A stretch of 64,000 nt of DNA from Escherichia phage vB_EcoM_G53. Below the pieces are notes generated by a model. The model was not told the DNA's origin and did no database searches. It saw only the letters and a program-made list of their open reading frames with translations. Within the stretch, counting starts at the first letter, position 1, and each line of letters opens with the position of its first letter. Below, one piece after another: positions 44,017-49,138 of the stretch. The position numbers were made by a program, and so were the translations under genes. The stretch lies in the sequence record MK327943.1. The stretch is one strand, 5' to 3'.

Positions 44017-45300
44017 ATGAGTAAAATCCAAAAATTATTGCGTGAATCTACAACGTCTACTAGCAACTCAATTGGTCGCCCAAATCTCGTTGCTTTGACT
44101 CGCGCTACGACTAAATTAATATATTCTGACATTGTAGCAACACAAAGAACTAATCAACCTGTTGCTGCTTTTTATGGTATCAAATATCTTAACCCGGATA
44201 ATGAATTCACATTTAAAACCGGTGCTACTTATGCTGGCGAAGTTGGATATGTAGACCGAGAAAAAATTACTGAACTCACAGAAGAATCAAAAGTCACACT
44301 AAATAAAGGTGATTTTTTCAAATATAATAATATCGTCTATAAAGTGTTAGAAGATACACCATTTGCAGATATTCAAGAAAGTGATCTAGAATTAGCTCTT
44401 CAGATTGCAGTCGTTCATTTAAAGGTACGGTTATTTTCAGATGCAGCGGTAACAAGCAAATTTGAAAGCTCTGATAGCGAAATTTCTGATGCAAGATTCC
44501 AGATTAATAAATGGCAAACTTCAGTCAAATCTCGCAAACTTAAAACTGGTCTCACGGTTGAATTAGCGCAAGATTTGGAAGCGAATGGATTTGATGCCCC
44601 TAACTTCTTAGAAGATTTGCTTGCTACTGAAATGGCTGATGAAATTAATAAAGATATTCTTCAGTCTTTAATTACTGTATCGAAACGTTATAAAGTTACT
44701 GGAATTACTGACACCGGATTTATTGACTTGAGCTATGCATCCGCTCCAGAAGCAGGTCGTTCATTATATCGAATGGTGTGTGAAATGGTATCACACATTC
44801 AAAAAGAGACAACTTATACTGCAACGTTTTGTGTAGCCTCAGCTCGTGCAGCTGCTATTCTTGCTGCTTCTGGTTGGTTAAAACATAAGCCAGAAGATGA
44901 CAAGTATCTTTCACAAAATGCTTATGGATTCTTGGCAAATGGATTACCTCTTTACTGCGATACCAACAGTCCGTTAGATTATGTTATTGTGGGTGTTGTA
45001 GAAAATATCGGCGAAAAAGAAATTGTAGGGTCCATCTTTTATGCTCCATACACTGAAGGAGTAGATTTAGATGACCCGGAACATGTCGGTGCATTTAAAG
45101 TTGTAGTTGATCCGGAAAGTTTGCAACCGTCTATCGGATTATTGGTTAGATATGCTTTATCAGCAAATCCTTACACAGTAGCAAAAGACGAAAAAGAAGC
45201 GAGAATAATTGATGGCGGGGACATGGATAAAATGGCGGGACGTTCAGATTTGTCTGTTTTATTAGGTGTTAAGCTACCAAAAATTATTGTTGATGAATAA
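44017..45300 (+). CDS. 24: head vertex protein gp24
   Basis: 427 aa, T4 size and order. Confidence 0.95.
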   Translation: MSKIQKLLRESTTSTSNSIGRPNLVALTRATTKLIYSDIVATQRTNQPVAAFYGIKYLNPDNEFTFKTGATYAGEVGYVDREKITELTEESKVTLNKGDFFKYNNIVYKVLEDTPFADIQESDLELALQIAVVHLKVRLFSDAAVTSKFESSDSEISDARFQINKWQTSVKSRKLKTGLTVELAQDLEANGFDAPNFLEDLLATEMADEINKDILQSLITVSKRYKVTGITDTGFIDLSYASAPEAGRSLYRMVCEMVSHIQKETTYTATFCVASARAAAILAASGWLKHKPEDDKYLSQNAYGFLANGLPLYCDTNSPLDYVIVGVVENIGEKEIVGSIFYAPYTEGVDLDDPEHVGAFKVVVDPESLQPSIGLLVRYALSANPYTVAKDEKEARIIDGGDMDKMAGRSDLSVLLGVKLPKIIVDE

Positions 45301-45305
45301 AACAA

Positions 45306-45327
45306 AGGGACCGTAAGGTCCCTTTTT
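45306..45327. terminator. bidirectional rho-independent terminator between gene 24 and rnlB
   Basis: GGGACC-GTAA-GGTCCC flanked by A-run upstream and T-run downstream. Confidence 0.75.
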
Positions 45328-45329
45328 CG

Positions 45330-46328
45330 TTATGATACTAATTCAATCCATGCAGGACGCAGAACATCTTGCACCATTCGGACTAATTCTTTCTTAACAA
45401 GATTCGGATTATCAGATGATGTTAATACAATACCTTCGCGAGAAGTTTCTTCCAGAATATCTTGAACAGTCAATCCCATCACTTTGCCAAAATCTTTTGG
45501 CGTTACAGCACCAATCTTAGAAATCACATTATTAATACGATTTAATGTAACATAACAAGCTAGAACATCAAGCAAGTTTTTGTCAGTTTCGGTTAATGGA
45601 ACCTGAGTTTTAATAGGCTTATCAGACTTTTTCTTTTCACTGAATTTAGAGTTCTTGCACTTAATAGCTACACGAGTACCGTTTGGCAACCATTTAGGGA
45701 AACAAGGCTTCAGAACATAACCTTCTGCCGTATTATCGCCAATAACATTAGCATCAAATACGCAATTATTTGCTTCGACAAGGTCTTCCGATGCCGTGGC
45801 GTTATAAGCGGCTAAAACGGAATCAAGGTCATTTGGAATCATGATAAGAGAATCAAATGTTCCACGACCAAGCATTGGTGCCATTTTAAAACCGAATTCA
45901 TTACAGAAATCTTGCATTTCGTAATCGGTCAAATACGTATTATCACCACTTTCTGTATTGATAAGGATATCGAACACATAAAAATCTTTTTCACCGTAGT
46001 CAACACCTTTCTGGATTCCACCACCAGCGAATTCACCAAAGACCTGATATGATACAGCTCGAGAACTACCCATTACTTCTTGAACGTTTTTAATAGCCTT
46101 ATCATACTTCTTGAGTACAATTTCATAACCATAAAAATCTTCTGCTGGAAGAATAGGGCCTGTGCGCTTGGCGCATGTGACGTTGTCACGTTCAATTATT
46201 AACGAGAAGTTAGTCCCATGGATTTTCTCACGTGCTACCCAAACACCAGTAGTCAAACCATTAGTGTAGAGTTTTTCAATAAACTTAGAGTTGTAGTGGT
46301 TTTCAAGACTGCTGTATTTCTTAAACAT
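45330..46328 (-). CDS. rnlB: RNA ligase 2 (RnlB)
   Basis: 332 aa; N-terminus [21 protein letters not shown] and ligase motif I KIHGTNF match my recollection of T4 Rnl2. Confidence 0.9.
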
Positions 46329-46447
46329 AAATCACCATTATAAATAATAATATCAAAATAATTAGCAGAGACTCTATCTCTGACCGGATGTTTAATTTGA
46401 ATGGATAGAACCTAGATTCATTATACCATCAAAAATTGTAAAGCATA

Positions 46448-46699
46448 TTAGAACTTGATTTCTATCCAATGACCATCACGCTGGTCGTGATTAATTTTGT
46501 ACTGAAAGCCATTATCACGAAGCCATTGACCGACTTGTTCAGTTATAGTTAAATCGTTCTTTGACGGGTAGTACGTGAATTGTGTCTGGCCTTTATCAGC
46601 GGCTTTCTCTGCCATCACAGAGAAGTTAGTAATAAAATCACTCAACAAATTAGCTTTAGTGGCCAGTGCCCTTTCTCTTAATTCCTGTGCAAAACTCAT
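46448..46699 (-). CDS. hypothetical protein (83 aa)
   Basis: ATG 46699 preceded by AAGGTGAAG; ATGA overlap with upstream gene. Confidence 0.55.
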   Translation of the reverse strand: MSFAQELRERALATKANLLSDFITNFSVMAEKAADKGQTQFTYYPSKNDLTITEQVGQWLRDNGFQYKINHDQRDGHWIEIKF

Positions 46700-46890
46700 T
46701 TCTTCACCTTTTTGTTAATCAAACGTTTACGGTATACAACTTTTTCTTTTGCTTTAAACTTTGACCGAGCTGTCTCGGCTTTAGTCCATAGTAATCCAAC
46801 TTCTTTAGGTTGTAAACCAATTTTTTGAGCAATTTCTACGAATGAAAATCCCGCCTCATGTAATGTATAAACTTCAACTTCAGCTCTCAT
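46696..46890 (-). CDS. small helix-turn-helix protein (64 aa), putative DNA-binding
   Basis: ORF track 46696..46896 begins at TTG; ATG 46890 used; segment YTLHEAGFSFVEIAQKIGLQPKEV looks like an HTH; basic C-terminus. Confidence 0.5.
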   Translation of the reverse strand: MRAEVEVYTLHEAGFSFVEIAQKIGLQPKEVGLLWTKAETARSKFKAKEKVVYRKRLINKKVKK

Positions 46891-46958
46891 AATCAATCCC
46901 GTATTATTTGGTTTGTGCCATTATATACATCAATCTCAAGTTGTGTTTTGTATGCTTT

Positions 46959-46986
46959 AAAAACGAAGAAAGGGGCCGAAGCCCCT
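46959..46986 (-). terminator. rho-independent terminator after hoc
   Basis: AGGGGC-TTCG-GCCCCT then UUCUUCGUUUUU on the minus strand. Confidence 0.7.
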
Positions 46987-46991
46987 TACGA

Positions 46992-48410
46992 TTATGGATA
47001 TGTATAGATGATACCAGTTTCCAAAGCAGTTTTATGGATGATGTATCCATTACGTGATTCTTGAACATCAACTTCCGGATAGTCTTTCATCATCTTCTGA
47101 AGAGTGTAACGATGCAGGTAGTATTTACTATCTGGATCTTCAGTTTTCCAATCTTTACCTTCTTCAGTCATTTTTTGGATTTCATCCATAACCCACCATC
47201 CGCACCAGATGTAAGCTGAAGTACGATGTGGAAGAGGATGAACATAAGGTAATTCACCTTCTGGTTCCGGAGCAACTTTATCAGTTACCTGAACTTGACC
47301 TTCTGCTGTAATAGTTTTGCTATCGTAATCAGTTGCAGTAATAGTTGCAGTAACTTCAATAGTTTGACTTCCAATAGATGAGGTATCAACGGTATATACA
47401 TTAGTTGACCCTTCTACAGGAGAAGAATCTTTCTTCCATGAATACTCGATTTGCGCTTCTTCTGGAGCATCAGTGACATTAGCGGTAAATGTAGCCGAAG
47501 CATCTTGCTGAACGTTAATAGAAGGAGGAGTCAATGTAACCCGTGGATTCATTGTCTTCTTATTAACCGTTAATGATACTTCATTCGAAGTAACTTCCTT
47601 TGCATCATAATCTGTCGCGGTTACTTGGGCTACACATTTAATTCTTTTTACTCCACTTGTAGTCGGAGTATAGCTAAATGTAGAGTTAGTTTCTCCACCA
47701 ACCTGTGAATCATCTACATACCACTGATACGTAGCAGACGCTCCAACCGGTTGAGAAGCTAAGGCAGCAGTAAATTGAACTGGGGTTCCAATTACTCCGG
47801 CTGAAGGACTATTGGGAGTTACTGCCAACGTAGTTGTCTGTGTCTTTTTATTAACAGTCAGTGACACTTCATTAGAAGTAACGCTTAGTGCGTCATAATC
47901 TGTTGCGGTTACTTGAGCCACACACTTAATTCTTTTTACCCCGCTTTCGGCAGGAGTGTAATTGAACGTAGCGTTAGTTGCTTCGCCAACAGGAGAATCG
48001 TCTACATACCATTGATAAGTAGCGTTTGCGCCTGATGGCTGCGAAGCTAAAGCGGCGGTAAATTCAATAGCTGTTCCTATTACTCCAGCGTCAGGGCTAT
48101 TAGGAGTTATAGCCAGAGTAGTTGTCTGAGTTTTATTTTTAACTGTGATAGTTGCAGTAGCTTCTGCTGTTTCAGCTTCAGCGTCTGGAACTGTATTTGC
48201 TGCAACTACTTTAATAGTCTTTTGACCGGCAGGTCCTTTTAGTACATAACTAAAAGTTGCTTCAGCTCCATCTTGTGGAACATCATCCACAGTCCAAGCA
48301 TATGTAATAGTTCCACCTTCAGCCTGACCACTAGGTGTGGCAGTAAACTGCTGGGTCTGTCCTATAACTCCAGTAGGTGTTTTAGGAGTTATATTAACTG
48401 TAAAAGCCAT
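46992..48410 (-). CDS. hoc: highly immunogenic outer capsid protein Hoc, with an extra Ig-like domain
   Basis: 472 aa; N- and C-terminal regions near-identical to my recollection of T4 Hoc, including the C-terminal capsid-binding region PLPHRTSAYIWCGWWVMDEIQK; one Ig-like domain is tandemly duplicated. Confidence 0.9.
   Translation of the reverse strand: MAFTVNITPKTPTGVIGQTQQFTATPSGQAEGGTITYAWTVDDVPQDGAEATFSYVLKGPAGQKTIKVVAANTVPDAEAETAEATATITVKNKTQTTTLAITPNSPDAGVIGTAIEFTAALASQPSGANATYQWYVDDSPVGEATNATFNYTPAESGVKRIKCVAQVTATDYDALSVTSNEVSLTVNKKTQTTTLAVTPNSPSAGVIGTPVQFTAALASQPVGASATYQWYVDDSQVGGETNSTFSYTPTTSGVKRIKCVAQVTATDYDAKEVTSNEVSLTVNKKTMNPRVTLTPPSINVQQDASATFTANVTDAPEEAQIEYSWKKDSSPVEGSTNVYTVDTSSIGSQTIEVTATITATDYDSKTITAEGQVQVTDKVAPEPEGELPYVHPLPHRTSAYIWCGWWVMDEIQKMTEEGKDWKTEDPDSKYYLHRYTLQKMMKDYPEVDVQESRNGYIIHKTALETGIIYTYP
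47559..48134 (-). repeat. tandem duplication (2 x 288 bp) inside hoc encoding two near-identical 96-aa Ig-like domains
   Basis: Residues 93-188 and 189-284 are near-identical (both end KRIKCVAQVTATDYDA..VTSNEVSLTVNKK); coordinates derived from codon positions. Confidence 0.8.
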
Positions 48411-48419
48411 AAGCTATCC

Positions 48420-49088
48420 TTATTTTAATGTTATGAAAGAAGAATTACGAGTTTCACGAATTAGAACTGATCCATCGCGATTAATATAATAAATTAAGCT
48501 AAATAATGTTTGGTGAGCAGAAGCATGTACAAAACTAGTTGGGCGAGATTTCCAATCTGGGGTTTCGGCTATCCATTGATAAATCCACCAAGGAACAGTA
48601 ACATATCCTGGGGCTTTGCCTAATTTAATTAGTGTAGGACTAAAATTTTCAGGCAGAACAAATTTTACTTCTTTATTTACCTCTGGTTCAGGCTCTTTTT
48701 CAGATTCAACAACCTGAGTAATTGCTTCTTCGAATTTATCATGGCTGAATTCTTTTTCTTGTTCGACAACTTCTAATACTTCAACTTGTTCTGTTGGAGA
48801 ATCAAACAACAGAATAGCTTCTTCTTTAACTTCTTCGTTGGTGAAATTAACACCGTCCACATCATCTGCGGCAGTAATTAAATCAGTGATAGATAATCCA
48901 TCAGTTTCAGGTAATGGTTCATCAGCCAGTGCGTTAAGAGCTTCTTCGATATCAACAACAATATTATCGAATGATTTTGTTTTCTTAACACTAATGCCAA
49001 ATTGTTTCGCATATTCGAACAGTTTAGCTTTGGCTTCCTTTTTATCGGAAAGAGCACGTAACTCTTCAATATAGTCTTTATCGATCAT
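48420..49088 (-). CDS. inh: inhibitor of prohead protease (Inh)
   Basis: 222 aa at the T4 inh position between hoc and uvsW. Confidence 0.75.
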   Translation of the reverse strand: MIDKDYIEELRALSDKKEAKAKLFEYAKQFGISVKKTKSFDNIVVDIEEALNALADEPLPETDGLSITDLITAADDVDGVNFTNEEVKEEAILLFDSPTEQVEVLEVVEQEKEFSHDKFEEAITQVVESEKEPEPEVNKEVKFVLPENFSPTLIKLGKAPGYVTVPWWIYQWIAETPDWKSRPTSFVHASAHQTLFSLIYYINRDGSVLIRETRNSSFITLK

Positions 49089-49101
49089 AGTATTTCCTCA
49101 T

Positions 49102-49109
49102 TATAAATA
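49102..49109 (+). promoter_or_regulatory. late promoter (TATAAATA) for uvsW
   Basis: Exact TATAAATA about 30 nt upstream of the uvsW ATG; uvsW is a late gene in T4. Confidence 0.6.
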
Positions 49110-49138
49110 TAACTATATTTATTACATGGTAATTTGAC

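Follow-up and report, generated by a model that had tools for sequence, protein, structure and literature searches.

The long hoc allele of Escherichia phage vB_EcoM_G53 carries a probably old tandem pair of Ig-like domains from a one-, two- and three-unit series

The hoc gene of Escherichia phage vB_EcoM_G53 encodes a protein longer than Hoc of phage T4, and the question raised by the locus is how, and how long ago, the additional length arose. T4 Hoc is a monomeric fibre of 180 Å with three Ig-like domains and a C-terminal anchor at the center of the gp23* hexamer (PMC10385173). Each capsid carries 155 copies, one per gp23* hexamer, and the protein is dispensable in the laboratory (PMC10385173). 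We analyzed a 64,000-nucleotide stretch of the phage sequence (record MK327943.1), hereafter called the window, in which the first-pass annotation had attributed the additional length of Hoc to a recent 288-bp tandem duplication of an Ig-like domain.

The identification of the gene as hoc held up against T4. The window protein matched the T4 Hoc chain 5vf3_Z of the PDB with an E-value of 3e-219 (phmmer), the C-terminal domain was recognizable, and the gene order rnlB-24.2-24.3-hoc-inh-uvsW matched that of the annotated T4, RB69, moskry and mar005P1 loci. Around hoc, the window has a 222-aa Inh-like gene, two small ORFs and a gene for a 332-aa RNA ligase 2, as well as a gene for a 504-aa UvsW-like helicase that lies on the opposite strand. 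On sequence grounds, the ORF is assigned to Hoc, the highly immunogenic outer capsid protein of T4-like phages. The lengths first given, 472 aa for the window protein (ORF list) and 376 aa for T4 Hoc (PDB chains and NC_000866), were also correct. T4 Hoc aligned with the window protein in two pieces, T4 residues 1-112 with window residues 1-112 and T4 residues 93-376 with window residues 189-472 (E 4e-171), and the window protein therefore corresponds to T4 Hoc plus 96 residues at the boundary between Ig-like domains 1 and 2 (D1 and D2). The gene, its parts and its flanking signals are as follows.

48417..48421, minus strand: ribosome-binding site (AAGGA) that overlaps the inh stop codon and lies 6 nt upstream of the hoc ATG (direct sequence reading)
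46992..48410, minus strand: hoc coding sequence, 472 aa plus stop, intact (ORF list)
46992..48410, minus strand: layout of hoc as four Ig-like domains and then a C-terminal capsid-binding domain (T4 Hoc match, Pfam PKD)
48135..48410, minus strand: Ig-like domain 1 (D1), aa 1-92, a beta-sandwich in the AlphaFold2 model with pLDDT ~90
47847..48134, minus strand: repeat copy A, the first domain-2 unit, aa 93-188, of the PEAAN core type (repeat detection, unit comparison)
47559..47846, minus strand: repeat copy B, the second domain-2 unit, aa 189-284, of the QGESS core type (T4 alignment)
47271..47558, minus strand: Ig-like domain 3 (D3), aa 285-380 (T4 Hoc alignment; AlphaFold2 strands at 290-376)
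46995..47270, minus strand: capsid-binding domain at the C terminus, aa 381-472, conserved across genera (identity to RB69 and T4)
46970..46987, minus strand: GC-rich hairpin and T run, likely an intrinsic terminator, 5 nt past the hoc stop codon (consensus scan and sequence)

The record of phage G2469 annotates a terminator at the position equivalent to the hairpin. The T4 late-promoter core (TATAAATA) was not found on the hoc strand between hoc and uvsW.

Pfam families scoring above their cutoffs in window Hoc were PKD, Ig_2, PKD_3 and PKD_4, with the PKD domain PF00801 at 43.1 bits (cutoff 23.5). An AlphaFold2 model built from an alignment of 43 homologs contained four beta-sandwich domains across residues 1-380 with pLDDT ~90 (mostly 87-96). 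The C-terminal domain, almost invariant in the T4 alignment, was modeled with low confidence (pLDDT below 50) and was assigned from its sequence identity to T4 Hoc. It is 94% identical to T4 at the nucleotide level and shares 91 of 92 residues with RB69; its T4 counterpart, residues 281-376, binds gp23* hexamers in cryo-EM structures (PMC10385173). Foldseek searches of the PDB with the model returned the four-Ig strings of ICAM-5 (D1-D4), Dscam and Sidekick, and the Hoc protein of phage RB49 (3shs) at an E-value of 1e-9. The predicted fold and the Foldseek and Pfam matches indicate that the extra unit is a complete additional Ig-like domain. With the T4 alignment, they bear out the proposal that the ~96 aa absent from T4 are one Ig-like domain, present as a tandem domain 2.

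Tandem Repeats Finder reported a 288-bp period in 2.1 copies at 47553-48143, and a second repeat search found two 288-nt copies in register with zero indels. In codon register, the tandem falls exactly at 47559-48134, where two 96-aa Ig-like domains had been predicted. The copies were much less alike than the first-pass annotation had stated. It had called them near-identical, with few residues differing; units A and B are identical at 217 of 288 nucleotides (75%) and 80 of 96 amino acids (83%), leaving 16 residues that differ. Base composition alone would give ~74 nucleotide matches (sd 7.4), which places the observed 217 at a z of ~19. Of the 96 codons, 55 differ between the units, 39 by synonymous and 16 by non-synonymous changes, and third codon positions account for 47 of the 71 nucleotide differences. 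The Nei-Gojobori estimates for A against B were dN 0.12, dS 1.53 (saturated) and dN/dS 0.08. The differences were evenly distributed over the unit and the longest in-register identical run was 14 nt. Extra DNA conservation at the unit junctions was not detected, as identity per 24 nt ranged from 14 to 22 without excess at the ends. The amino acid differences were not enriched in loops of the model, with 9 of the 16 at non-strand residues, which make up 51 of the 96 positions. A saturated dS together with a low dN/dS indicates that A and B are old copies, each of which was kept functional. Judged from these substitution patterns, both units appear to be under strong purifying selection, so both are taken to be functional domains.

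The same divergence bears on the possibility that the assembler expanded or mis-joined the repeat. Assembly errors often arise at tandem repeats. The longest run shared by the two units, 14 nt, is nevertheless far under any read or k-mer length that could confuse an assembler, the ORF is intact, and the 1419-bp gene recurs at 90-97% identity in many independently sequenced genomes. The 25% divergence of the units and this recurrence make the concern moot, and we give an assembly artefact practically no probability.

The age of the A/B split was gauged against the divergence of hoc between phages. Between the two units, the paralogous dS was 1.53 in the window; it was 1.13 in moskry and 1.24 in F31. 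Orthologous dS for unit B, D3 and the C-terminal domain was 0.01-0.14 between the window and moskry, F31, G2469, mar005P1 and APCEc01, which belong to the same species, and that for unit A was 0.15-0.24 between the window and moskry and F31. For all parts of hoc, dS between the window and T4, a member of another genus, was 0.24-0.40. Orthologous values among the relatives, T4 included, spanned 0.01-0.46, and the paralogous values were greater by several-fold to ~100-fold. Since the paralogous dS exceeds the orthologous dS, we infer that the A/B split predates the divergence of T4-type hoc alleles in both genera. D1 was the most variable part of Hoc among the closest relatives; its dN against same-species relatives was 0.05-0.12, compared with 0.00-0.01 for D3.

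The close relatives of the phage differ in the number of units. The 24 kb around hoc were 98.1-98.5% identical to vB_Eco_F31, mar005P1, APCEc01, G2469 and other phages, and the relatives at ~98% identity are assigned to Mosigvirus in the records examined. The window phage, by this similarity, is placed in Mosigvirus (RB69-group T4-like). Among the 98% relatives, F31, WFbE185 and vB_EQ1 have a two-unit hoc, which matched the window gene in one piece, and mar005P1, APCEc01, G2469, FL18, JK42 and MM02 have a one-unit hoc, which matched in two pieces and is ~290 bp shorter. Of the 656 phage records that matched hoc, 60 were sampled at even spacing; ~20 of these had the full 1419-bp span and ~27 the 1131-bp T4-type span. 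The 1419-bp form was detected in Tequatrovirus (RB27 and PP01) as well as in Mosigvirus (moskry and F31), and a three-unit hoc was detected in Tequatrovirus UGKSEcP1. Among the top 120 protein clusters, homologs had 376 aa (79 clusters), 472 aa (29) or 568 aa (7), with a few others off by 1-4 residues, in agreement with the earlier expectation that the domain number of Hoc varies. The window hoc was identical to no record searched, its best match being 97.3%. The GenBank records of moskry and mobillu carry a repeat_region annotation beneath hoc. A scan of IMG/VR returned only four close relatives; the remaining hits were distant Hocs, whose genes measured 840-1653 bp, a sign of length diversity. 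The scan was of little use for unit genealogy, which was based on GenBank phage records and protein clusters.

These data allowed us to evaluate whether domain 2 was recently duplicated in situ by slippage or unequal crossover, leaving copies that have barely diverged. An exact, in-frame 288-bp period without indels is what such an event would leave, and the existence of relatives that are 98% identical over 24 kb and yet lack one unit looks at first sight like a recent gain. However, the two units are only 75% identical in DNA sequence with a dS of ~1.5, and the orthologous units of moskry and F31 are 92-99.7% identical to those of the window while within each of these phages A and B have diverged to the same degree. 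The single unit of the sister strains is B-type throughout, and what distinguishes them from the window is the presence or absence of an already diverged unit A. Nor is the two-unit gene restricted to one lineage, as it occurred in ~1/3 of the sampled related records and in two genera. In 30 two-unit proteins the unit pairs were identical at 54-82 of 96 residues (median 76), 82 being the maximum; the unit pairs of three-unit proteins were identical at 70-81 of 96 residues, and the three units of UGKSEcP1 at 218-225 of 288 nt in pairwise comparison (75-78%). A near-identical, demonstrably recent unit duplication was not found among the 30 two-unit or the three-unit proteins sampled. The claim of recency thus failed on a dS of 1.1-1.5 in three phages and on an architecture shared by dozens of phages of two genera, and a recent duplication is in our estimation very improbable.

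Units were typed at the 71 nucleotide positions at which A and B differ. In G2469, mar005P1, APCEc01 and T4, the single unit was B-type throughout (264-278 of 288 nt identical to B), apart from one short stretch in T4 (unit nt 242-251) that is A-type; unit A is missing from all four phages, and the one domain 2 that T4 has is the ortholog of window unit B (264/288 nt). Other one-unit genes were chimeric. The single unit of FL31 has an A-type 5' start and a B-type 3' end at the DNA level, and that of P0105, a metagenomic protein, changes from A-type to B-type between nt 218 and nt 230 and is followed by a D3 identical to that of the window at 283 of 288 nt. A chimera with an A-type 5' part and a B-type 3' part is exactly what an unequal crossover leaves when it removes one of the units of an A-B array, and the differing breakpoints in FL31 and P0105 point to independent events. 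By its sequence features, hoc fits a copy-number-variable tandem domain array, in which the unit number differs between close relatives and the chimeras have the polarity of deletions.

The order of the units was nearly invariant. The PEAAN core occupied unit 1 in 29 of 30 two-unit and 7 of 7 three-unit proteins, with QGES, QGEA or LGET cores after it. The two-unit combinations, PEAAN/QGES, PEAAN/LGETN and QGEAN/LGETN, look like different contractions of a three-unit PEAAN/QGEAN/LGETN array. One-unit genes carried either core (PEAAN-like in ~45 of 79, QGES-like in ~29 of 79); some one-unit alleles were purely A-type, others purely B-type, and many were patchworks. The pure A-type and B-type one-unit alleles and mosaics with a B-type 5' and an A-type 3' part, such as the T4 patch, cannot come from a simple deletion within an A-B array and need in-register exchange or gene conversion, which makes array contraction an incomplete account of the variation. 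Joining of hoc alleles out of register was seen in P0092 (567 aa), in which a T4-type D1 and one T4-type unit are followed, out of register at SLTVNKK, by RB69-type units, the remainder of the gene being identical to RB69 at 1103 of 1140 nt. The D1/unit, unit/unit and unit/D3 junctions have the common pattern ACNGTTAANAAN/AARAC and are plausible join sites. Because the copies are no more alike at their ends than in mid-unit, no specialized recombination site is claimed.

We consider it probable that the long hoc allele is an old tandem domain-2 pair, A-B, and that it is part of a series of one-, two- and three-unit alleles under out-of-register recombination. Most likely, an old, small array of units expands and contracts by out-of-register homologous recombination, with crossovers between units or at the conserved domain junctions (...SLTVNK/KT...). 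T4-type recombination-dependent replication and mixed infection would provide the setting, and the unit order would stay fixed within the series, with the PEAAN-type first and the QGES- and LGET-types after it.

An account with a different founding event was weighed against the old array. A-type and B-type one-unit alleles may have diverged in different phages, been joined out of register during a mixed infection, possibly not long ago, and then spread by recombination. One-unit genes of either core type exist in the proportions given above, some one-unit alleles (P0074 and P0058) remain A-like as far as their 3' end, P0092 proves that very different hoc alleles can be joined out of register at SLTVNKK, and hoc Ig cassettes pass between genera, as described below. 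But the unit order was never inverted, and an A-type unit in the first position in all but one of the multi-unit proteins points to a single founding event, or very few, and not to repeated fusions. The two-unit forms also resemble subsets of the three-unit array, as would be the case if an older array had contracted. The fixed order and the nested two- and three-unit series favor, as far as sequence comparison can tell, the old array, and we regard a fusion of alleles as unlikely, although a good deal less remote than a recent duplication.

The identity of the window to other phages changes abruptly along the locus. Between the window and RB69, which belong to the same genus, the flanking genes were 96-100% identical and the Ig region of hoc (~47270-48400) 54-67% identical. 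Between the window and T4, of another genus, the flanking genes were 60-76% identical and the same Ig region 83-96% identical. The C-terminal capsid-binding part was conserved in the window, RB69 and T4. Such a sharp mosaic indicates a T4-type Ig cassette within a Mosigvirus backbone, and by this pattern the whole Ig cassette (D1-D3) is exchanged between phage genera. More tentatively, the Ig region may be a cassette that is freely exchanged between Mosigvirus and Tequatrovirus, with the number of units (1, 2 or 3) and the patchwork of types kept polymorphic by selection; we hold this to be possible but doubtful. If it were true, adhesion to mucosal and bacterial surfaces and escape from antibodies would be candidate forces, and fibre length and valency would be tunable, the two-unit allele doubling the glycan-binding site.

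Weak attachment to bacterial surfaces and mucin glycans, and an effect on how particles disperse, have been proposed as roles of T4 Hoc. In the Hoc protein of phage PNJ-9, residues S183, L184 and T185 within the segment N180-T185 are needed for binding of fucosylated MUC2 (PMC11853027). The sequence NEVSLT occurs twice in the window protein, at residues 180-185 in unit A and 276-281 in unit B, and the other three pocket segments mutated in the PNJ-9 study are conserved in both units except for S126 in A against V222 in B. The PNJ-9 mutations sit in the last beta-strand of the domain and may destabilize the fold rather than contact the glycan. In the window phage, the C-terminal domain would bind the center of each gp23* hexamer and the Ig domains would project as a fibre. 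This fibre would be one Ig domain longer than the 180 Å fibre of T4, very roughly 40-45 Å more, and would display two NEVSLT domain-2 segments. Both features, the added length and the doubled candidate glycan-binding segment, are plausible for the two-unit allele.

The value of these results lies mainly in correction, the extra Hoc domain being, on the evidence above, an old, selectively maintained unit and not a fresh duplication. Assumptions on Hoc length taken from T4 (376 aa, 180 Å) fail for ~1/3 of close relatives, which has a bearing on phage display and vaccine scaffolds, on work with mucus adherence and on the selection of phages for therapy. The divergence between A and B is enough for genetic stability and for separate targeting of the units by primers or antibodies. 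The natural series of one-, two- and three-unit alleles is ready material for work on fibre length or domain valency and mucin binding. As a discovery the allele counts for little, since variation in the number of Ig domains in Hoc is published and the same architecture is present in many public genomes, some of them repeat-annotated. An open-access literature search for the explicit domain-2 tandem or the 1/2/3-unit polymorphism returned general statements on Ig variability and other variants only, and publication elsewhere is possible.

The Hoc protein of RB69 (471 aa; NP_861884), the type phage of the window's genus, also has four Ig-like domains and a C-terminal domain. Its Ig domains are 40-59% identical to those of the window at the amino acid level, and its two middle domains are identical to each other at 39 of 96 residues, far more diverged than A and B of the window. 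The possibility that the four-Ig Hoc of RB69 is orthologous to the A-B pair was considered and rejected; A and B matched RB69 unit a at 49 and 52 of 96 residues, respectively, compared with 40 and 38 for RB69 unit b. As both window units resemble RB69 unit a, the four-Ig state arose separately in the RB69-type and T4-type cassettes, and the fourth Ig domain of RB69 is, on this comparison, assigned a different and older origin than that of the window.

T4 Hoc (376 aa; NP_049793; PDB 5vf3 and 8t1x) is encoded by the same gene, likewise located between inh and 24.3/rnlB, and the window hoc is 87% identical to it in nucleotides overall and 94% in the C-terminal part. T4 has one domain-2 unit and three Ig-like domains, whereas the window has an A-type unit between D1 and the B-type unit and four Ig-like domains. 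In moskry, vB_Eco_F31 and vB_EQ1 (Mosigvirus) and in RB27 and PP01 (Tequatrovirus), Hoc has the same 472-aa architecture at 90-97% nucleotide identity, and the window differs from these two-unit Hocs by point differences and small mosaic patches only, mostly in D1 and unit A. The Hoc protein of UGKSEcP1 (568 aa) agrees with that of the window in unit type, junctions and core order and has one domain-2 unit more. The PNJ-9 variant has three domains and lacks D3 (PMC11853027), and the change in the window is instead a second copy of D2; the domain-2 numbering and residues of PNJ-9 (N92-T97, A122-G127, A165-Y172 and N180-T185) match window unit A. A Hoc homolog with 10 Ig domains occurs in Serratia phage Muldoon, and the number ranges from 1 to 10 among homologs (PMC10385173). 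Across Hoc proteins, the number of Ig domains varies while the C-terminal anchor stays (PMC11853027, PMC10385173). Within this range, the window hoc is an ordinary, widespread and already deposited length allele of a generally published phenomenon.

The phage vB_EcoM_G53 carries a T4-type Ig cassette in hoc, the gene for the capsid-decoration protein Hoc, on a Mosigvirus backbone, and the resulting mosaic is sharp. The region concerned and the flanks with which it was compared are as follows.

47270-48470: hoc mosaic region, compared with the flanks in 45250-49067 for identity to RB69 and T4; hoc itself lies on the minus strand

The identity profile against RB69, the type phage of the same genus (L030), gave 96-100% identity in the flanks within 45250-49067 and 54-67% in the Ig region of hoc. 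The profile against T4, which belongs to another genus (L028), gave 83-96% identity in the Ig region and 60-76% in the flanks. The C-terminal anchor of Hoc was conserved across the window phage, RB69 and T4.

Both allele classes were found together in one Hoc homolog, P0092.

L032:1501-3204 (Logan SRR17833564): P0092, a 567-aa hybrid Hoc

In P0092, a T4-type Ig-like domain 1 (D1) and one T4-type domain-2 unit are joined out of register at the SLTVNKK domain junction to RB69-type sequence that comprises units a and b, D3 and the C-terminal domain (1103 of 1140 nt identical to RB69). The hybrid thus has five Ig-like domains drawn from two allele classes.

Among the closest relatives, the part of hoc that varied most was D1 (window 48135-48410). 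The dN relative to mar005P1/APCEc01 was 0.117 for D1 and 0.009 for D3, and the dN/dS of D1 was approximately 0.8 in the comparison with moskry and F31. These values suggest that D1 has undergone additional mosaic exchange or that the distal tip of the fibre is under diversifying selection. D1 and D3 also contain small repeats.

47325-47353: 12-nt tandem repeat, 2.3 copies, within D3
47338-47357 and 48145-48164: 20-nt direct repeat, 90% identical, at the ends of D3 and D1

Both copies of the 20-nt repeat encode strands resembling ...ATATITV/TATITAT, and the repeat is probably a mere reflection of the last beta-strand common to Ig domains.

Outside the T4/RB69 group, the number of Ig domains at the hoc locus varies widely, as the homologs at the same locus in distant T4-like phages (L005-L021, IMG/VR) ranged from 840 to 1653 bp. 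The naming of hoc was inconsistent or wrong in many GenBank/NCBI records. Labels included "baseplate wedge subunit" (FP43), "endonuclease" (a Shigella sonnei entry), "capsid vertex protein" (SP1), "capsid whiskers protein" (BASEL phages), "hypothetical protein" and "PKD domain protein," and in a few records hoc was annotated as two or three separate CDS.

The T4 late-promoter core TATAAATA occurred 18 times in the whole window compared to 7.3 expected, a count reached in none of 100 shuffles. The cores were mainly on the plus strand at 35.5-44 kb, a distribution consistent with a T4-type late structural gene cluster. In the interval from hoc to uvsW, the scan found no such core on the strand that encodes hoc.

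Beyond hoc on the D1 side, inh and uvsW were separated by a spacer of only 50 bp (49089-49138). In T4, segE, a GIY-YIG homing endonuclease gene, sits between inh and uvsW; given so short a spacer, the window phage lacks segE at this position.
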